64,000 nt of DNA from an uncultured bacterium. GTDB taxonomy: Bacteria > Acidobacteriota > Thermoanaerobaculia > Multivoradales > JAHZIX01. Both the position numbers and the translations under genes were made by a program. The notes beneath the pieces are model-generated. The model made no database searches, was not told the DNA's origin, and saw nothing but the letters and a program-made list of their open reading frames with translations. Where the stretch lies: NCBI GenBank assembly GCA_965368975.1, contig CBDUPA010000015.1:32001-96000 (forward strand). Reading direction: 5' to 3'. Shown here piece after piece: positions 32,150 to 39,453 of the stretch (position 1 is the stretch's first letter; the number at the start of each line of letters is the position of its first letter).

Positions 32150-33502
32150 TCACGACGGTAAAGGCCCGGTATAGCGGGCGCGCGGACGGATCAGCCGGTC
32201 CATCTGGTACTGCTCGATCGCCTGCCCCAACCAACCAGCCGAGCGCCCGAGCGCGAAAACGGCCATGCCGCCACCGGCAGGTAGACCGAGAACACGCCCG
32301 AGGAGCCACAGGCCAAGGTCGATCGTCGGCTCGGCGTCGAGCAGTTCACGGGCGACATCAGTGAGCGCCGCCGCGAAGCGCACGTCTTGCTGCCCCACCT
32401 GAGTAGCGGCCGGAGCCGAGGATCGCAGTAGATCGAGAAGCAAGCTCGCACGCGGATCGCCGCTCGGGTACATTGGGTGCCCGAAGCCCGGGATCTCGTC
32501 GCCCCGACGCAGCCGATCCACCACCACCCGGCGCACCGCCGCGGTCGGCGACGCACCGCCACCACTGGCGTAGGCATCTTGCGCCTCCCGCAGGAAGGCC
32601 TCGACACGACCGATCACCCCGCCATGCTTGACGCCCTTGAGCGCGGCCAGGCCGGCACTGACGACTTCGTACGGCGTAGCGCCCGCCGAGGCGACACAGC
32701 GGGCGGTGAAGGCGGACACGTTGAGTTCGTGGTCGGCACACAGGATCAGCGCGGCTTGCAGCAACTGCACCGCGTCCGGCCCGTGCTGCGGCGACCAAGC
32801 ACGGGCGAGGGTCGCCGCAGCGCCACCTTGGCGCGCCGGCAGCGGCACACTACCGGCCAGCGTCGCCGCCAGCGTCGACAGAATGCGCGCGCCAGTCGCA
32901 GCCACCGCCGACGGCCGTAGATCGAGCGCGCGCAAGTCGTTTCGTCCCGTCAAAGGCAAGACCACCTGGCAGCGTTCCACCGGTTCGAGTTCCGCCAGCA
33001 GGGGCACCCAACGCGCGGCGACAGCAGGAGCGCCGCCAGCGTCAGCAGAAACTCCGCCCGCTCCAGAAGACAGTCCCAGTTCCGCGTCTGGGTCCCCGGT
33101 CCACAGCAACGCCGCCACCCGCTCGAAGGTCTCCTCGCGTGCCAGCCGCGTCGCTTCGTGACCGCGGTAGTAGAGCTTGCCGTCGCGGATGAGCGTGATC
33201 GACGACTCCAGCACCGGCGCACCGTAGTGCAAGCTCTCCGCAACCGCCTTGTCCGGCTCGCGTCGCAACTGGCGACGACTGCGCAAGTGCTCGATATCTT
33301 CGAGGTGGTACTGGCGCTCGCGCCGTCCCGGTTGGCCCGCCTCGGAACGGATCAGGCCGCGGCTGACGTAGGCGTAGAGCGTCGCCCGGCTGATTCCCAG
33401 CTGCGCAGCGGCTTCACCGGCGCTCAGGTAGCGGGAATCTCGGCCAGACTCGGCTTCACGGGTCAGGGTGGCTTCGCGGGGCAGGAGGGCATCCTTGTCC
33501 AT
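32150..33502 (-). CDS. HTH-citrate synthase fusion (probable citrate-responsive regulator)
   Basis: N-terminal excisionase-like HTH (LSAGEAAAQLGISRATLYAYVSRGLI) plus citrate synthase fold (DHELNVSAF, KHGG, GFGHPMYPSGDPR). Confidence 0.85.
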   Translation of the reverse strand: MDKDALLPREATLTREAESGRDSRYLSAGEAAAQLGISRATLYAYVSRGLIRSEAGQPGRRERQYHLEDIEHLRSRRQLRREPDKAVAESLHYGAPVLESSITLIRDGKLYYRGHEATRLAREETFERVAALLWTGDPDAELGLSSGAGGVSADAGGAPAVAARWVPLLAELEPVERCQVVLPLTGRNDLRALDLRPSAVAATGARILSTLAATLAGSVPLPARQGGAAATLARAWSPQHGPDAVQLLQAALILCADHELNVSAFTARCVASAGATPYEVVSAGLAALKGVKHGGVIGRVEAFLREAQDAYASGGGASPTAAVRRVVVDRLRRGDEIPGFGHPMYPSGDPRASLLLDLLRSSAPAATQVGQQDVRFAAALTDVARELLDAEPTIDLGLWLLGRVLGLPAGGGMAVFALGRSAGWLGQAIEQYQMDRLIRPRARYTGPLPS

Positions 33503-33548: not shown

Positions 33549-33631
33549 CCACATAGACTTCCCCCTCCATACTGAAAGTGCTTCGAGCGTCAGCAATTCG
33601 GCTGCACGCGGCGCCCTTGGAGGATTCCTCG

Positions 33632-34906
33632 ATGCCCGAAACCGCCACCACTTCGACTCTCCATCTCGACTCTCGTCCCAGTTCCAACGGACTCGAGGGC
33701 GTGATCGCCGCCAGCACTCGCCTCAGCCGAGTCGACGGAGCCGCTGGCCGCCTGACCCTCGCCGGCTTTGCCGTCGAGGAACTGGCCCCCAGGGCCAGCT
33801 TCGAGGAGGTCACGTACCTGCTGTGGACCGACCGCCTTCCCACCTCGACCGAGTTACAGCAACTGCGTGCCGACCTGGCGCATCGCCGCTGCTTACCGGC
33901 AGCAACACTGGCATGGCTGCGGCATGCCGCAGCAGCCAAGGTCGCACCCATGGACGCGCTACGCACCGCTGCCGCCACGGTGTGCGCCGAGACAGCGGAC
34001 ATCTCCGACCCGCGCGACCAAGCACGCACTCTGCTGGCCGTGCTGCCGGTGGCTCTGGCCACTTATGAACGCCTGCGCCGTGGCGGTCGTTCTGGCGAGG
34101 ACGCAGCGCCGTCACAAGCCGAAATTGAAGCCCTGGGCGACGCCGACCTGGCCACCGGCTTCCTGACTCTGCTCGACGGCCCTCCGTCAACCAGGAGCAT
34201 CAGGCCACCGCGCCCACAGCGCGTGCGGGCGCTGACCACCTACCTGAACACCGTCGCCGACCACGGTCTCAACGCTTCGACCTTCACCGCTCGGGTGATC
34301 GTCGCCACCGGCTCGGACATGGTGTCAGCCGTCACCGGAGCCATCGGTGCGCTCAAAGGCCCGCTGCACGGCGGCGCACCAGGTCCCGCACTCGACGATC
34401 TGCTGGCGATCTCTGCAGGCGCGAGTGCCAGTACCGGCTCCAGTACGGGCGACGGCGACACTGCCGCCTACGCCGAAACCTACCTACGCGCCAAGCTGGC
34501 ACGCGGCGAGCGCCTGATGGGCTTCGGCCATCGCGTCTACCGCGTGCGCGATCCGCGCGCCGAGGTGCTGAACGCGGCCGCCGAAGCCTGGCTGAGCAGC
34601 GCCGGTGGTGATCGCGAACTCCTGCGCCTGGCTCGCGAGGTCGAGTCGACCGCGCTGCGCCTGCTCAGCGAGCACAAGCCGGACCGCAAGCTGCACACCA
34701 ACGTCGAGTTCTACACCGCGCTGCTGCTCCACAGTCTGGGCCTACCGTCCGACCTCTTCGCCCCCGTCTTCGCCCTCGGTCGTACCGCCGGCTGGATCGC
34801 GCACGCCCTGGAACAACTCGAGTACGGCCGCCTGATCCGGCCGAGCGCCACCTATATTGGTGAGGAAGGCCGCTCGTGGCAGCCACTCGGTTCGCGGACC
34901 GCGTGA
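33632..34906 (+). CDS. Citrate/2-methylcitrate synthase family protein
   Basis: GLEGV, DHGLNASTF, GPLHGGA, GFGHRVYRVRDPR and NVEFY motifs; GGAGGA RBS. Confidence 0.9.
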   Translation: MPETATTSTLHLDSRPSSNGLEGVIAASTRLSRVDGAAGRLTLAGFAVEELAPRASFEEVTYLLWTDRLPTSTELQQLRADLAHRRCLPAATLAWLRHAAAAKVAPMDALRTAAATVCAETADISDPRDQARTLLAVLPVALATYERLRRGGRSGEDAAPSQAEIEALGDADLATGFLTLLDGPPSTRSIRPPRPQRVRALTTYLNTVADHGLNASTFTARVIVATGSDMVSAVTGAIGALKGPLHGGAPGPALDDLLAISAGASASTGSSTGDGDTAAYAETYLRAKLARGERLMGFGHRVYRVRDPRAEVLNAAAEAWLSSAGGDRELLRLAREVESTALRLLSEHKPDRKLHTNVEFYTALLLHSLGLPSDLFAPVFALGRTAGWIAHALEQLEYGRLIRPSATYIGEEGRSWQPLGSRTA

Positions 34907-35472
34907 AGTGCGGAGCCACTGTGGGCCAGGTGCGCCAACAGGTGCACGATACGGCGTGGATTGCCCTCAGCGGCGAGCGTTAGGGCCCGGGCGGTTTCTG
35001 AGAGCAGCAGTGGATCGCCGGTTGCCGTGTCCATCCCAGCCAACAGCTCCTGGCAATCCTCCACCGAGAAGGGGCGCAGACGTAAGGTGAAGAAATAATT
35101 CGGCATATAGGCATCGATGGTCTCGACGTTGGTCGCCAGAACGACCACATCTGCCGGGCCGTGCAGCTCGACCAAGCCGCGGCAATCCTCGGGCCGGTCG
35201 TATTCATCGAACAGCAGTAAGCGTTGGCCACCGCGCCGGGAAGCGTGCAACGAGCGCGCGATGAGAGACAGCCTCGACGTGCGATCGGCCGGTGGACAGC
35301 CTTCGAAGAAGTAGACCGAACAGCGGTCGGCGAAGGCATCGCGCAGCTGCCGCAAGACAGCCGTCTTGCCACTGCCCGGCGTCCCCACCAGGATCACGCC
35401 TCGGTCCAGCCGGCGGTCGAGCAGATCACGAACAGCTGCTTGCGCCAGCTTGAAGTTGGTCGTTGCGATCAT
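34852..35472 (-). CDS. Small P-loop AAA+ ATPase overlapping the end of the rSAM gene
   Basis: Walker A GTPGSGKT, Walker B LLLFDE and GNPRR lid motif; GAGGTGG RBS inside the rSAM 3' end. Confidence 0.7.
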   Translation of the reverse strand: MIATTNFKLAQAAVRDLLDRRLDRGVILVGTPGSGKTAVLRQLRDAFADRCSVYFFEGCPPADRTSRLSLIARSLHASRRGGQRLLLFDEYDRPEDCRGLVELHGPADVVVLATNVETIDAYMPNYFFTLRLRPFSVEDCQELLAGMDTATGDPLLLSETARALTLAAEGNPRRIVHLLAHLAHSGSALHAVREPSGCHERPSSPI

Positions 35473-36586
35473 GTCGCACCACCTCGTCCAGGGCGTCGAG
35501 GACAGGAAGCTCCTCGTACGCGATATGAGACATCAGCCCAGCGAGCTGGCAGCTTTCTGGAGTAACCGGCTCGCCGTGGCAAAGCTCCTCGACGTAGCGA
35601 TCGTGAGGACAACCACCGTGGCACAGGTCATACCAGCGGCAGTGCCGCCGACAGCTCTCTTGCCAAGCTCGAATCTGCCGCGCGAACGCACGCGTTCCGG
35701 GATGCTGACGCAATTGCTCCACCGTCACCTGCCGGATGTTGCCGATCCGGTAGGAACTGTCGCCAACATACTTGTCGCAGTGGCCAACGCTGCCATCCGG
35801 TTCGACGGTGAAGTATCTTCCGGCACAGTTGGCCGACAACATGCACACCGTGGGGGCTCTTCCCTGGATCGCCTGCACAATGCTGTCGATCTCGCGGATC
35901 TTGAACTCACGATCGTCGTCCTGGCGCCAGATGTCATAGAGCTGCTCCAAGAACGAGGTATAGGCGGCTTGATCGACAAAGTCGTCGACCAGCATCTTGC
36001 CTTCCCGTAGATCGCGATTGTTGGGCCGCACCGGCAGCAGGCCAAAGCTGTTCAATCCAATCGATTTGGCCCATTCGAGCAGCGCTCGCGGACCGAGACG
36101 ATAGAGATCTGTCGTCAGGACGATCAACGCTCCCGCGTGGACCCCGTGGCGATCCAGGCGCGCGAGCGCCCCCAGTACCTCGTCGTAGGAACCCGTGCCA
36201 TTGGCCTTGCGCCGGGAAATATCGTGGTTGCTGCGTGGACCATCGAGGGAGACACCGACCTGAATACCAAAGCGACGAAACAGATGACACCAAGCATCGT
36301 CGACCAAAGTACCGTTGGTTTGCAACGCATTGTTAATCCGGTGTTCGGCCGTCGCCAGGCGGGCCTGTAGCCACAGCGCCTTGCGAAAGAAGTCTCGCCC
36401 CATGAGCAAAGGCTCGCCACCATGCCACATGAACTCCACCTGCCGGTCCGCGTCCAGTGCCTTGCGGATCAAGTGGACGAGCGTCGGAAACTCCATCGAC
36501 AAGTGGCGTCCACGGGCACGCCAATCGTGACAGTACGTACAGCGCAGGTTGCAGCGGCGCGTCACTTTGACGATGTAGCCAGCCAT
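35426..36586 (-). CDS. Radical SAM/SPASM peptide cyclase, DarE/DynA-like
   Basis: KVTRRCNLRCTYCHDW, EFMWHGGEP, KALWLQ, QTNG, GALIV, RPNNR, CMLSANC, CDKYVG and CRWYDLCHGGCPHDR motifs. Confidence 0.85.
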   Translation of the reverse strand: MAGYIVKVTRRCNLRCTYCHDWRARGRHLSMEFPTLVHLIRKALDADRQVEFMWHGGEPLLMGRDFFRKALWLQARLATAEHRINNALQTNGTLVDDAWCHLFRRFGIQVGVSLDGPRSNHDISRRKANGTGSYDEVLGALARLDRHGVHAGALIVLTTDLYRLGPRALLEWAKSIGLNSFGLLPVRPNNRDLREGKMLVDDFVDQAAYTSFLEQLYDIWRQDDDREFKIREIDSIVQAIQGRAPTVCMLSANCAGRYFTVEPDGSVGHCDKYVGDSSYRIGNIRQVTVEQLRQHPGTRAFARQIRAWQESCRRHCRWYDLCHGGCPHDRYVEELCHGEPVTPESCQLAGLMSHIAYEELPVLDALDEVVRHDRNDQLQAGASSCS

Positions 36587-36633
36587 CGTATCCCCCCAGT
36601 GTCGATCACGCGAGTGGAGGTCAGGATCTGTCT

Positions 36634-36665
36634 CAGCCCCGGCCCGCGGCTGCCGGCCGGGGCTG
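36634..36665 (-). promoter_or_regulatory. GC hairpin between the precursor and rSAM genes
   Basis: CAGCCCCGGCC ... GGCCGGGGCTG, 11-bp stem. Confidence 0.65.
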
Positions 36666-36685
36666 CAGGCGTGCACCACGCCGTG

Positions 36686-37102
36686 TCAGTTCACTTCGAT
36701 CTCGAAGTCCTGCAGGGCTTGGATCTCGTCAGCATTGAATCGGACGCGTCCGAGGTTCTGGAGGAACGCCTCGCGCCGGAACACTACTGGCAAGTCGAAG
36801 ATCGACTCGTAGCGGTAGGCCCAGATGCTCAGGTTCCACCAGCTCTCGCTCCAACCACACGACGCTTTACCGCCGATCTGGCTGGCCAGAGACTCGATGC
36901 GACTGAGAAATCCCGGAACGACTTCGCCCTTGTCGAGGCGGATGTGGGCCATCGGCTCGAGCGCGGGGCGCGTTCCGGCCTTCTCGTGCGCGGCCATGCC
37001 GAGCGCTATCTTCAAGCGCTCCTGGCCGGCCTGCTCGACAAGCTCCGAGTCCTTCAAGGCTTTCGCGATCTCCACAATCGACATTTGAGGTGCGTGTGCC
37101 AT
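36686..37102 (-). CDS. 138-aa putative RiPP precursor with an internal Trp/Tyr-rich core
   Basis: AGGAAGGAG RBS; contains CGWSESWWNLSIWAYRY; lies 100 bp upstream of the rSAM gene. Confidence 0.8.
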   Translation of the reverse strand: MAHAPQMSIVEIAKALKDSELVEQAGQERLKIALGMAAHEKAGTRPALEPMAHIRLDKGEVVPGFLSRIESLASQIGGKASCGWSESWWNLSIWAYRYESIFDLPVVFRREAFLQNLGRVRFNADEIQALQDFEIEVN

Positions 37103-37212
37103 GACAGACTCCTTCCTGTTTGTCCGTCTTACATACTGAAGACCGGAGACGCGAGGCACACCACTCCATCGGATGGGTCGGTAGCCACCCACCGAGCCTG
37201 GGCGCGACGAGG

Positions 37213-39318
37213 TCAGCGCCCGAGGACTTCGTGCTGCCGGTGGAAGAAGACACTGGCGCGACGCTCGACGCCCTCTTGCATGATGCCGAGATACGGAATC
37301 AGAGAGCTGAACGTCGTGCACACCGCACGCAGCGACGCTTGCATCTCGCGGCAGGTCTTGGCCACCACCAGCTGCTGGTAGGTCTCGTGCTGCGGCAGGC
37401 CATTGCCCATCTCGCGCAGGCGGCCGATCTCCTGCACCAGGCTGTAGCCCATGTCATGCTGCGCGATGCAACGGCTACCATGACGCGCCAGGTCGGCGGC
37501 GCTGCGACTGAGCACGTCTTTGTCTTCGAAGCGCACGCCTTCCATCGAGTACAGCTTGTGCAGCCTCGGCACTAGCCGCTCGCTCAGCACCTCCAGGAAA
37601 TGCGACACCGCCTGCCAACCTTCGCCGCTGGGGATGCGCCGCACCTTGTTCTGCTCGTCGAACAGGACCTTGAGAATGCGCGCCAGGTTCTCCGGCGTCA
37701 GGGCCAGACCGGCAACCTGGCTCTGCTGCAGGCGCTCCATGAACTCCCCCAAAGCTTCCATCTCCTTGAGCAGGGTAACCGCTTGCTGGGCCTCGACGGA
37801 GAACTCGCGCAAGAAGAAGTGATAGGAAGACTCGGTACTGCGTGGGTCTTTGGCGGCGATGTGAGCGAAAGCGGTTTGCAAGAAGGTACGCAGTTCGCCG
37901 ACGCAGGCGCACAGATCCTGACGCAGGGGCTTGGCGATCTCGGAGCGCAGCTCGTGCAGCAAACGCACCGACGCGCTGCACAGATCCTGGAATTCGGCCA
38001 CCTCGTCATCCAGTTCGCGCAACTCGCCTTGCAGAGCGGCCAGCCCGGTACCGTGGCGGCTGGACGCTCCAGCGTGCTCGAGCGCCACCGCACCAGCCTG
38101 CAGGCGCCCACGTACCAGTTTCGGTACGGCTTGCTGTAGGCGCTCCGTCAGCTCAGCCGACGAACCGCCCTCGACGCTCGGCAGCTCCAGGCTGAGTTCC
38201 TCGACCGGGATCACGTAGGTATGGAGCAGTCGCTCCAACTCGCGCGCACACGTCCGCAGCGCCTTGCCGACACTTTGCATCTCGAGGCGACTGACCTCGC
38301 GGTCGTCGACCCCGGTCGGGAACTGCAACAGGAATCCCAGCTTGCCAGCGCGCAGCTCACGGTAATTCAGTGACACCTGGCGGAGGGCTTCGACCAGCTC
38401 GACCAGGGCTCCGTCGAGCCGGCGCCGGTACTCCAGCTGGCGCTCTAGGTCCGCCACCTTGTTGTCGGACAGCTCGCGGAACTGCTGAGAGGCCAGACGC
38501 AGCTCGCGCTCCAACTCCAGGTAGCTCGAGCGTTGATCGACCAGCGGCGGCAACTCGGCCCGCAGGTAACCGAATACCTGCTGGAACACTGCGGCCAGAC
38601 GCCAGAACTCTTCGAGCCCGGCATAGACGACCTCCTCATTGCCCCCCAATGCCGCCAGGCGGCGGTCGCCGCCGAGGAGCAAACGGATGCGCTTGCGCTG
38701 ACAGCGTACTTCGCTCTCGAAGGATTCCAGACGCAGCAGGTCTTCGAGAAACAGAACGGTCGCCGCCGGCGATGCGCGCAGCGCCCGCTGTAGCTCGGCT
38801 TCGATGTCTCCGGCAGCGGCACTCTCCAGCGGATTGTCGACCCTCAGGCGCTGCTTGAGCGAGCGCCGTACATGCTGGATCACCTGGTCGATGAAGTCGG
38901 TGAGCCGGTGGCGCGCGGTCTGCAGATCCTGCACCGCGATGCTGACGACCAGCAGCATGGGCAGATCCTGGTGCAGACGGTCAGCAACCCGGACCAGCTG
39001 TGCCTTCAGACTCTTGACGGCCATCACTTGCGTCTGGCCGACCAGGTCGTCGACCTCGCACGACTCGCAGAAGCGCAGCACCATGCGCGAGAAGCGCAGC
39101 CGCCACTCCTGGCGCTTCTGCACCAAGAACAGGTCGTCAGGACTGATCTCGGCAGGCGGTGCGGAGGGCGACTCCGCGTCGCCCGTTTGTCGCCGCTCTG
39201 CCGACCGCCGCTCCCCCATCCGGCGCTCACTCGTCGGGCGCTCACGGATGGGGCGCTGGACGGAAAGGCGTTCCACGTCGAGAGCTTCCGATCGGGGGAC
39301 TACGGGCGAGCTTGCCAT
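37213..39318 (-). CDS. Large alpha-helical/coiled-coil hypothetical protein with N-terminal ERRxxERRxxERR repeat
   Basis: About 700-aa ORF with Leu/Glu/Arg heptad character and no enzyme motif; start uncertain. Confidence 0.75.
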   Translation of the reverse strand: MASSPVVPRSEALDVERLSVQRPIRERPTSERRMGERRSAERRQTGDAESPSAPPAEISPDDLFLVQKRQEWRLRFSRMVLRFCESCEVDDLVGQTQVMAVKSLKAQLVRVADRLHQDLPMLLVVSIAVQDLQTARHRLTDFIDQVIQHVRRSLKQRLRVDNPLESAAAGDIEAELQRALRASPAATVLFLEDLLRLESFESEVRCQRKRIRLLLGGDRRLAALGGNEEVVYAGLEEFWRLAAVFQQVFGYLRAELPPLVDQRSSYLELERELRLASQQFRELSDNKVADLERQLEYRRRLDGALVELVEALRQVSLNYRELRAGKLGFLLQFPTGVDDREVSRLEMQSVGKALRTCARELERLLHTYVIPVEELSLELPSVEGGSSAELTERLQQAVPKLVRGRLQAGAVALEHAGASSRHGTGLAALQGELRELDDEVAEFQDLCSASVRLLHELRSEIAKPLRQDLCACVGELRTFLQTAFAHIAAKDPRSTESSYHFFLREFSVEAQQAVTLLKEMEALGEFMERLQQSQVAGLALTPENLARILKVLFDEQNKVRRIPSGEGWQAVSHFLEVLSERLVPRLHKLYSMEGVRFEDKDVLSRSAADLARHGSRCIAQHDMGYSLVQEIGRLREMGNGLPQHETYQQLVVAKTCREMQASLRAVCTTFSSLIPYLGIMQEGVERRASVFFHRQHEVLGR

Positions 39319-39453
39319 GACGCCGATACTGTCATTTCCCAATATATTTGAAAAGATCGGCACCTACCCCTCTCGACTGAGCAGTGAAACTTTCCACCCG
39401 CTGGTACGTTGTCAACGATGGATCCCCCATCGAACCGAGCCAGGAGCCCCGCC

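Follow-up and report, generated by a model that had tools for sequence, protein, structure and literature searches.

To our knowledge, no natural-product scaffolds other than those made by the radical S-adenosylmethionine (SAM) enzymes DarE and DynA are known to block BamA, and relatives of these enzymes are the object of intensive mining. DarE forms W-O-W and W-K/R links and carries the CxxxCxxC cluster motif; the daropeptide precursors surveyed together with it fall into clusters I-IV, carry their cores at the C-terminal end (WNWxKxF; W-N-W-x-K/R-x-F or W-T-F/Y-R-F type) and come from Photorhabdus, Yersinia and "diverse genera" (PMC9055067). The links of dynobactin are Trp-Asn and His-Tyr (PMC10288494, where DynA is called DynB), and in xenorceptides a beta-strand is held in place by cyclophanes of three residues, namely WVN, FAR and WSK (bioRxiv 10.1101/2024.12.16.628070). 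Here we describe a locus in a 64,000-nt stretch of DNA (hereafter the window; contig CBDUPA010000015.1, positions 32,001 to 96,000, of assembly GCA_965368975.1) from an uncultured bacterium, which encodes a protein of 138 amino acids (aa), P0001, and a radical SAM/SPASM enzyme, P0002. We consider it fairly probable that the two genes form a cassette in which P0001 is the substrate protein, of an unnamed family, and P0002 a dedicated maturase that cross-links Trp to the residue at i+2. The small proteins of about 140 aa constitute a family that has neither a name nor a Pfam or NCBIfam model; the substrate family and its architecture would be new, with an enzyme chemistry that is probably of the DarE/triceptide type.

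A small-protein family encoded directly upstream of a radical SAM enzyme

A HMMER search with P0001 against 1.84 billion representative proteins gave, at E <= 0.001, 13 proteins besides P0001. Of these, 11 were 127-160 aa long and aligned end-to-end (E 5e-17 to 9e-4), and the two others, P0132 (6 stretches in 602 aa) and P0133 (7 stretches in 698 aa), were long, looked like repeat matches and were left out of the alignment. A family profile run over 5.8 billion proteins found 19 proteins, none of them named beyond "hypothetical protein". No consistent Pfam or NCBIfam match was obtained for the 20 aligned members, and P0001 itself had none. A word-indexed search with P0001 alone returned only P0001, which reflects a limit of sensitivity rather than orphan status because the full HMMER search did find relatives. 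No paper on the family was found among open-access papers and bioRxiv (supplements excluded), and large compendia of radical SAM-dependent ribosomally synthesized peptides with post-translational modifications (RiPPs), such as the dataset of PMC10288494 and the atlas of Clark and Seyedsayamdost, may list it.

The loci seeded with the enzyme were the best 80 of at least 241 confirmed relatives of P0002. When the family profile was run on all open reading frames (ORFs) of at least 30 aa in 83 loci, it matched the window locus and nine others (L004, L005, L006, L007, L009, L012, L020, L028 and L042), with no other match at E <= 1. In these nine of the 80 enzyme-seeded loci the family ORF ended just 5' of the radical SAM gene, on the same strand. 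Their hosts were Bacteroidota (three genera), an alphaproteobacterium, a member of the Caldilineaceae (Chloroflexota), a member of the Thermoleophilaceae (Actinomycetota), a member of the Spirochaetia (Spirochaetota) and a Bathyarchaeia archaeon. A further contig, L008, carried no DNA upstream of its radical SAM gene. Metagenome contigs searched with the precursor alone gave 73 pattern matches, two of which were confirmed as loci, and a radical SAM gene lay immediately downstream in both. A family member was thus found directly upstream of a radical SAM gene in all 12 loci with readable context (the window, the nine and the two metagenome loci), in bacteria and archaea alike. An all-against-all comparison of 11 loci showed that the precursor and the radical SAM gene were the sole genes in common, besides antisense shadow ORFs and one gene pair shared by two loci.

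The first-pass annotation, made from the letters of the window, had proposed a precursor-like gene followed by a DarE-related radical SAM/SPASM maturase, and this proposal is supported. It had also asked whether the upstream ORF is conserved beside homologues of the enzyme, which the 12 loci answer in the affirmative, and it had called the precursor unusually long, a trait that is borne out as one conserved throughout a family of about 140 aa. A putative substrate gene beside the enzyme gene across distant taxa, one or more conserved candidate recognition parts and a variable core, the general pattern of a RiPP precursor and its maturase, were all found.

The Trp core

Alignment A2 divided the family into a conserved N-terminal part of about 65 residues (I..L.K.L.D......IG......A...A.EEK.G.K...P.......KGE.VP..L), a Trp-studded segment, a variable linker and a conserved stretch of about 20 residues at the C-terminus. 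Columns of the Trp-studded core were counted over 20 sequences and are given in the residue numbering of the window copy. W94 was present in 20/20 sequences, W88 in 17/20 and W84 in 16/20, and position 98 was W in 18/20 (Y in the window copy). The positions two residues after the three Trp were mostly K, N/D and R, respectively: position 86 was most commonly K (7/20; E in the window copy), position 90 was N or D in 18/20 and position 96 was R in 14/20 (Y in the window copy). The residues in between varied. Position 87 was S or T in 14/20. The resulting consensus, G-W-x-K-S-W-L-N-L-x-I-W-x-R-x-W, contains three Trp-x-(K / N / R) triads. In Larkinella-type members the first two Trp were absent and W-x-R was repeated three times in tandem, and a second, unrelated precursor family likewise ended in W-x-R units. 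No Cys was conserved in the small-protein family. Judged by this column pattern, the Trp segment would be the modified part of the protein, and it is this reading of the core that carries weight.

Relationship of P0002 to DarE and to sulfatase maturases

P0002 matched the Radical_SAM (PF04055; 75.3 bits, cut-off 29.5) and SPASM (PF13186; 34.1 bits, cut-off 21.5) models of Pfam, as well as TIGR04085 (52.7 bits, cut-off 27). It carries a CxxxCxxC motif, with C12, C16 and C19 nearly invariant in alignment A1, and a C-terminal Cys-rich SPASM domain, the two features that define the radical SAM/SPASM subfamily. Scores against the named NCBIfam families all fell below their cut-offs: 269.4 bits for DarW (NF041300) and 267.0 bits for DarE (NF038005), both with a cut-off of 650, 247.2 bits for the anaerobic sulfatase-maturing enzyme (anSME; TIGR03942, cut-off 349.45) and 203.0 bits for DynA (NF041298, cut-off 450). 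The models of triceptide synthases (XyeB, GrrM/OscB, FxsB, YhhB, AmcB) gave 95.2-161.1 bits, none reaching the cut-offs of 310-450, and the QhpD model gave 82.5 bits (cut-off 453). As controls, the proteins of L013, L017, L030 and L031 scored 705-836 bits with the DarE model, and those of L053 and L060 scored 426.7 and 495.4 bits with the anSME model. The DarW cut-off was reached by no locus of the set (best 512.6 bits, a DarE protein), and nothing in print on DarW was found among open-access papers and bioRxiv.

By BLASTP, P0002 was 35% identical over 357 residues to a Yersinia protein that passed the DarE model (836 bits), and the blocks CNLRCTYCH.W, WHGGE, CDKYVGD and C.W...CHGGCPHDR were identical in the two; the DarE motifs that the first-pass annotation had listed are present. 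P0002 was 30% identical to a Photobacterium protein passing the anSME model, and its nearest relatives (40-46% identity) were unnamed or merely called "radical SAM protein". The closest solved structure was the anSME 4K37 (148 bits), and no DarE-like chain was present in the PDB copy searched. The match to the DarE model started at residue 5 of the protein and position 77 of the 432 model positions, showing that P0002 has no N-terminal extension of about 75 residues, and the match to the DynA model covered positions 4-324 of 356.

Two unrooted trees were built, in which related sequences are not independent of each other. Labels were taken from scans with the curated models, and DynA and DarW are not represented because no protein among the loci passed either model. 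The careful tree had 45 rows (42 chosen from the 80 enzyme-seeded loci, together with L093, L094 and the window) and was split by a branch with 100/93 support into 30 and 15 rows. The 30-row side held the window, all cassette enzymes and five DarE-group proteins (four scanned, all passing the DarE model), and the 15-row side held a six-protein clade labelled anSME (two scanned, both passing the anSME model) together with proteins of the candidate phyla radiation (CPR) and archaea. The window enzyme was sister (95/88) to a 15-row clade containing the DarE clade (100/100), and it stood outside the DarE clade itself. The quick tree, with 79 rows (the truncated rows L076 and L082 left out), had the same split with a Shimodaira-Hasegawa-like approximate likelihood ratio test support of 99, with the window, every cassette enzyme and DarE among 38 rows and the anSME proteins among 41, together with many from CPR and archaea. 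The concern that the enzyme might cluster with sulfatase maturases is answered by both trees, which separate it from the anSME proteins. Going by model scores and tree placement, P0002 falls, among the anSME-like SPASM enzymes, on the side containing DarE, and it belongs to none of the DarE, DarW, DynA and anSME families. Were the root to lie on the anSME side, the enzymes of the cassettes would be paraphyletic with respect to the DarE clade and make up a grade below it.

Several other ORFs were seen upstream of related enzymes. Members of a second precursor family, about 105-117 aa long and with a leader EE(L/I)DAFA.K(L/V)..W...LP and W-x-R-containing C-terminal cores, were encoded upstream of the radical SAM clade next to that of the window (L014:4248-4598, L022:337-669, L025:4519-4842, L029:2144-2458 and L095:2263-2712, the last on the Cupriavidus sp. 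KK10 plasmid p1). Homology of the P0001 family to this family (L014, L022, L025, L029) was rejected, with an hhalign probability of 0.4%. Three Micrarchaeota/Micrarchaeia loci carried, on the plus strand just upstream of a radical SAM gene of the DarE side group, a short ORF read as about 37-49 codons (L038:4777-4923, L039:4746-4877, L040:4800-4919). These ORFs end in W-R-G-H-(N/R)-(L/V)-(H/S)-S-K-S, a short precursor with a Trp/His core at the C-terminal end, in DPANN archaea. In two Thiohalomonadaceae loci (L033:4627-4968, L034:1694-2053) an ORF of 114-120 aa preceded the most basal radical SAM gene of the DarE side; its core letters were rich in Cys and Trp and its tail, LTPSEIKILRGLKL, resembled the C-terminal motif of the family, with no profile match at E <= 1. 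Directly 5' of DarW-like radical SAM genes in Sorangium and Solirubrobacterales lay a gene for a radical SAM protein of 620-670 aa with a B12-binding domain (L010:2528-4540, L032:2920-4791; by eye also in L011 and L082), which suggests two-enzyme radical SAM clusters.

Predicted structure of P0001 and of its complex with P0002

An AlphaFold2 (AF2) model of P0001, built from the 20-row alignment, had a mean predicted local distance difference test score (pLDDT) of 78.6 and a predicted template modelling score (pTM) of 0.65. It contained helices at residues 9-17 and 24-42 and a strand at 52-56, the pLDDT being 84-93 for most of the stretch from residue 11 to 80 (91-93 over 51-80, 79 for 21-30). 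The Trp core was predicted as a beta-hairpin with strands 84-90 and 95-100, so that residues i and i+2 would face the same side. Two C-terminal helices followed (110-121 and 124-132), and residues 104-117, which vary in length within the family, were predicted to be disordered (pLDDT < 50). A search of the ESM Atlas with P0001 returned a best score of 0.81, which is noise level.

The P0001-P0002 complex prediction scored 0.56 compared to 0.00 for the best control, which gives the pairing weak support; in this weak band a pass is more often false than true if the pairing was not already likely. Between runs, at least 34% of the contacts were shared, and the pLDDT of the partner was 51 or higher. 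In calibration 58 of 80 solved complexes passed the mark, as did 2 of 110 mismatched pairs, and passes at a score of 0.60 or less came from only 7 of the 80 solved complexes and from both of these mismatches.

Proposed modification of P0001 and its alternatives

In the mechanism that we propose, P0002 would dock on the conserved N-terminal part of P0001, perhaps also on the C-terminal tail, and would cleave SAM at its CNLRCTYC cluster, as is established for the superfamily. The 5'-deoxyadenosyl radical would take a side-chain hydrogen near a conserved Trp, whose indole would be joined to the residue two positions on. Candidate triads in the window copy are W84-S-E86, W88-W-N90 and W94-A-Y96, which parallel the W-S-K/R ring of darobactin and the WVN, FAR and WSK rings of xenorceptides. 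By analogy, the links would each be formed as a C-C cyclophane (-2 Da) or possibly as an ether (+14 Da), and they would make the beta-strand or hairpin rigid. In the message, the GC hairpin that separates the two genes probably serves to keep the precursor more abundant than the enzyme. The product may either be released as a peptide by housekeeping proteases or be used as a stapled whole protein.

Several points weigh against this proposal. The nearly equal anSME and DarE scores of P0002, an anSME as the only close solved structure and the finding that DarE itself makes formylglycine on Ser-substituted substrates (PMC10705402) mean that the chemistry of P0002 is not readable from homology. 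The window copy deviates at the likely modification sites E86, Y96 and Y98 and may be modified differently, or less. In the 11 loci compared, no protease, exporter or immunity gene was conserved with the cassette. The AF2 model was built from 20 sequences only and matches no known fold (Foldseek against the PDB gave no match at E <= 0.001, with a maximum TM-score of 0.22), the complex score is weak, and the root of the trees was not inferred.

The fate of the product is where the closest alternative lies. P0001 may stay whole as a protein of about 140 aa, its Trp hairpin stapled by the same enzyme step, and would then act inside the cell as a stabilised mini-protein or a cofactor-bearing subunit; we regard this as possible without expecting it. 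The moderately confident predicted fold points this way (and keeps alive the alternative of a modified folded protein that the first-pass annotation had itself raised), as do the conservation along the full length, including the tail past the core, the absence of a conserved protease or exporter and of a signal peptide seen by eye. QhpD, which acts on QhpC, is a SPASM enzyme with a protein substrate. Further precedent for SPASM enzymes with protein substrates has been described (PMC13692751). Excision of a peptide is favoured instead by the disordered, length-variable residues 104-117, which would suit a cleavable linker, and by a core whose hypervariability among subtypes is RiPP-like; no gene for a partner enzyme or subunit was conserved near the loci, and the missing protease is weak evidence since darA and darE alone suffice for darobactin (PMC9055067). 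A different role for P0001, to which we attach little probability, would be that of an accessory (a chaperone, recognition element or regulator) to an enzyme whose true substrate is encoded elsewhere. Its full-length conservation and predicted fold would fit this, and a separate recognition protein is conceivable because P0002 lacks the N-terminal extension of DarE, but a variable Trp-studded middle with conserved flanks is what one sees in a modified core rather than in a binding protein, no third gene is conserved in the 11 loci, and the hairpins that follow the small gene in several loci would fit a gene whose product is required in surplus.

Two other readings were weighed. P0002 might be an oxidase of the sulfatase-maturase type, with a Ser or Cys of the genome's sulfatases or of the small protein (e.g., the conserved Ser87) turned into formylglycine or a beta-oxo residue. 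Besides the anSME likeness and the formylglycine activity of DarE mentioned above, the 22 Sulfatase-domain matches in the genome and the S or T at position 87 in most of the family are consistent with this. None of the 22 matches was on the contig of the window, however, and the genome also had 28 matches to the domain of the formylglycine-generating enzyme (FGE), one of them about 1.7 kb from the best sulfatase, so an oxygen-dependent sulfatase route exists. With the score below the anSME cut-off, the 100/93 branch parting P0002 from the anSME-passing proteins and the strict 12/12 pairing with a Trp-core protein left unexplained, a sulfatase-maturase role is unlikely, and we give it a slim chance. 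The first-pass annotation had read residues 89-98 of P0001, WNLSIWAYRY, as a dynobactin-like core, to be excised as a peptide of about ten residues with two rings (possibly W1-S4 and W6-Y8) that possibly binds BamA of Gram-negative bacteria. The segment does share 4/10 ungapped identities with the dynobactin A core WNSNVHSYRF, whose letters were verified (PMC10125368), the enzyme lies in the wider DarE/DynA neighbourhood, and bamabactins are beta-strand mimics held by three- or four-residue cyclophanes (bioRxiv 10.1101/2024.12.16.628070), in line with the predicted beta structure of the P0001 core. The same score was reached, however, by 43 of 85,575 ten-mers in the six-frame ORFs of at least 60 aa of the window and by 1,366 of 20,000 shuffles (6.8%) of the 138-aa P0001. 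W89, Y96 and R97 each occurred in 1/20 family members, being unique to the window copy, and the ten-mer misses the conserved W84 and W88. At chance level, and with three of its four identities found in the window copy alone, the alignment carries no weight. Nor are the two proposed links supported. Taking the linked Asn as core position 4, since the link is Trp-Asn and the core starts W-N-S-N, the linked Asn 4 and His 6 correspond on our reading to Ser92 and Trp94 of P0001. The DynA score was less than half its cut-off, the core sits in mid-protein before a conserved tail of 40 aa, no transporter is conserved, and the cassette also occurs in Actinomycetota and archaea. We found evidence of no kind for a BamA-binding antibiotic and consider a dynobactin-like product very improbable.

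The proposed cross-linking of Trp to the residue at i+2 by P0002 can be taken a step further, into more speculative ground. The Trp-core proteins of about 140 aa might be a new class of radical SAM substrates, in which a hairpin is stapled by several Trp-to-i+2 links, and their enzymes the basal grade that gave rise to DarE (if the root is on the anSME side); we put this forward as a rather doubtful conjecture. If true, darobactin-type antibiotics would be a shortened, exported offshoot of an older protein-stapling system spanning bacteria and archaea.

Locus layout and neighbouring genes

The features of the locus are listed in Table 1. The 138-aa ORF with a strong ribosome-binding site, the 11-bp GC hairpin and the radical SAM/SPASM gene, as first annotated, were all confirmed in the sequence.

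Table 1. Features of the cassette and adjoining genes (positions in the numbering of the whole 64,000-nt window)
Feature	Position	Strand	Basis or remark
Shine-Dalgarno-like AGGAAGGAG	37109..37117	-	6 bases 5' of the P0001 ATG, read directly
P0001, 138 aa + stop, putative precursor/substrate of the unnamed Trp-core family	36686..37102	-	ATG 37102, TGA 36686-36688
P0001 residues 1-76, conserved N-terminal "leader-like" part	36875..37102	-	alignment A2 of the family
P0001 residues 84-98, WSESWWNLSIWAYRY, Trp core	36809..36853	-	column counts, 20 sequences
P0001 residues 89-98, WNLSIWAYRY, segment singled out in the first-pass annotation	36809-36838	-	
P0001 residues 118-138, conserved C-terminal tail (F..EE...L..L.I)	36689..36751	-	alignment A2; E126 nearly invariant
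Intergenic hairpin, perfect 11-bp GC stem, 10-nt loop, no U-tract	36634..36665 (36665-36655 / 36644-36634)	-	
P0002, radical SAM/SPASM maturase, 386 aa	35426..36586	-	Pfam, NCBIfam, trees
CNLRCTYC, CxxxCxxC motif for the SAM-binding [4Fe-4S] cluster, P0002 residues 12-19	36530..36553	-	alignment A1
SPASM region with conserved C248, C254, C270, C316, C322, C326, C345, C346	35549..35845	-	Pfam SPASM residues 255-316, TIGR04085, invariant A1 columns
P0003, P-loop NTPase, 206 aa, context gene outside the conserved cassette	34852..35472	-	AAA_16 and AAA_22 matches below cut-off
P0004, helical protein, 716 aa as read, true start uncertain, context gene outside the conserved cassette	37213..39363	-	

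P0001 and P0002 are separated by a 99-nt spacer that contains the hairpin. The 121-nt hairpin region folded with -56 kcal/mol (z = -2.13; 9/200 shuffles folded equally well). No T-run was found 3' of the hairpin and the terminator listing shows none there, so the hairpin is not a canonical terminator. Comparable hairpins lay between the precursor and radical SAM genes of L004, L005, L007 and L009, these four being observations made with no shuffle control. The start of P0002 at ATG 36586 has GGGGGGA 4 bases upstream and agrees with the N-termini of 22 homologues; an alternative longer reading of the gene (GTG-417) would cross the hairpin. In a public protein collection the enzyme appears as a 356-aa call, P0005 (35426-36496, minus strand), which starts at Met31 and is without the CxxxCxxC motif, so automated annotation may overlook its radical SAM identity.

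The start of P0003 overlaps the 3' end of the radical SAM gene by 47 nt, which suggests translational coupling. No relative of P0003 was found in the 80 enzyme-seeded loci or adjoining relatives of P0004. P0004 had no Pfam, NCBIfam or PADLOC match and was absent from the other cassette loci. Its C-terminal part of about 240 aa came up again in 13 of 40 related genomes, which have no cassette, in proteins from open frames that were 365-599 aa long, with one further copy in its own genome (contig C31). In the ESM Atlas, P0004 gave a feature-only lead to clusters of the dynein heavy-chain tail (DHC_N1; 0.95). P0003 and P0004 were rejected as members of the cassette, neither being present in other cassette loci and the P0004 domain occurring in cassette-free relatives. 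An "empty site" is not demonstrable because P0003 does not lie beside the copies of the P0004 domain.

The block is bordered by a divergent ADOP permease gene and a convergent citrate-synthase-like gene. The latter is one of two divergent paralogues of the citrate synthase family (32150-33502, minus strand; 33578-34906, plus strand), both below equivalog cut-offs, and the first has an N-terminal stretch that by eye resembles a helix-turn-helix. ADOP permeases are typical of Acidobacteriota, and since the neighbouring gene passed the ADOP permease model (925.5 bits, cut-off 622.3), the suggestion in the first-pass annotation that the host is probably an acidobacterium is plausible.

Distribution and probable mobility of the cassette

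The precursor profile matched 1 of 401 sampled genomes of the phylum, that of the window itself, and none of the 400 others. A search with the single protein in 40 relatives gave two weak matches (L002, L003; E about 0.007), neither beside a radical SAM gene, and a close relative of the enzyme was found in 0/40 of these genomes (one match at 2e-39 was left aside). A plasmid search gave no match to the family member P0137, and the best plasmid match to the enzyme was the Cupriavidus plasmid carrying the second precursor type. A search of sequencing runs gave no RNA run and one DNA run with 0.07 of the words, a result that bears on neither expression nor habitat. The G+C content was 0.59-0.64 over 35200-37600 compared to 0.67-0.70 in most flanking bins. 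DDE transposase genes flanked both metagenome cassettes (L093:360-1688, minus strand; L094:3971-4984, plus strand), and a Cas9 gene with RuvC_III, HNH_4 and bridge-helix matches followed the cassette of a Bacteroidota genome (L028:6714-11090, plus strand). Its rarity in the phylum, its lower G+C content and the transposase and Cas9 genes beside its relatives make the cassette look like a mobile accessory unit, and in the genome of the window it is probably an accessory, horizontally acquired element. In PADLOC, P0001 and P0004 had no match, P0002 showed a generic radical SAM likeness to viperins and P0003 gave weak P-loop matches, and a reading as a defence system was dropped on these results despite the one cassette beside Cas9 and the two beside transposases.

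Comparison with known systems

The cassette represents a sister lineage of the described systems, and its substrate, from a conserved family of 140-aa proteins, differs greatly from theirs. Since its carriers range from widely differing bacteria to archaea, the lineage offers new cross-link patterns. It bears on the evolution of ether- and cyclophane-forming enzymes from anSME-like ancestors, and on radical SAM cyclophane chemistry on proteins as well as peptides. For the genome of the window it is an isolated accessory locus.

DarA precursors are short, about 50-66 aa. DarE with DarA resembles the cassette in the CNLRCTYC, CDKYVGD and CHGGCPHDR blocks of the enzyme, in its place on the cassette side of the branch that divides off anSME, in the precursor gene immediately upstream and in a Trp-centred substrate with units of the Trp-x-(K/R) type. 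P0002 differs from DarE in its score (267 bits against a cut-off of 650) and in the missing N-terminal extension of about 75 aa, and the cassette has no darBCD-like transporter. Whereas daropeptide precursors have a C-terminal core, P0001 has 138 aa with its core at 84-98 and a conserved 40-aa tail, which sets it apart from them, and the P0001-family profile detected no DarA-type ORF in DarE loci. The cassette is spread over many phyla and DarE/DarA is found in Enterobacterales and Vibrio-type hosts. DynA is likewise a SPASM radical SAM enzyme without a long N-terminal extension that acts on an aromatic-rich substrate, but P0002 scored 203 bits against its cut-off of 450, and the Trp-Asn and His-Tyr links have no conserved counterpart in the P0001 family. 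The anSME enzymes share with P0002 the closest structure (4K37), a similar length, the SPASM layout and the 30% identity to the Photobacterium protein; they differ in score (247.2 compared to 349.45 bits) and lie on the opposite side of the 100/93 branch. Where an anSME would be linked to a sulfatase with a Cys/Ser-type motif, P0002 is paired with a Trp-core protein and has a P-loop NTPase as its other neighbour.

The QhpD/QhpC pair and an archaeal protein thioether system (PMC13692751) are similar in that a SPASM radical SAM enzyme acts on an adjacent small protein that is kept whole. Both form Cys-based thioethers, in contrast to the P0001 family, which conserves Trp and no Cys. The triceptides and xenorceptides differ in having short precursors with Gly-Gly leaders and dedicated protease-transporters (bioRxiv 10.1101/2024.12.16.628070), and what the cassette would share with them is the proposed aromatic-to-i+2 links, several per core, and a beta-strand-like product.

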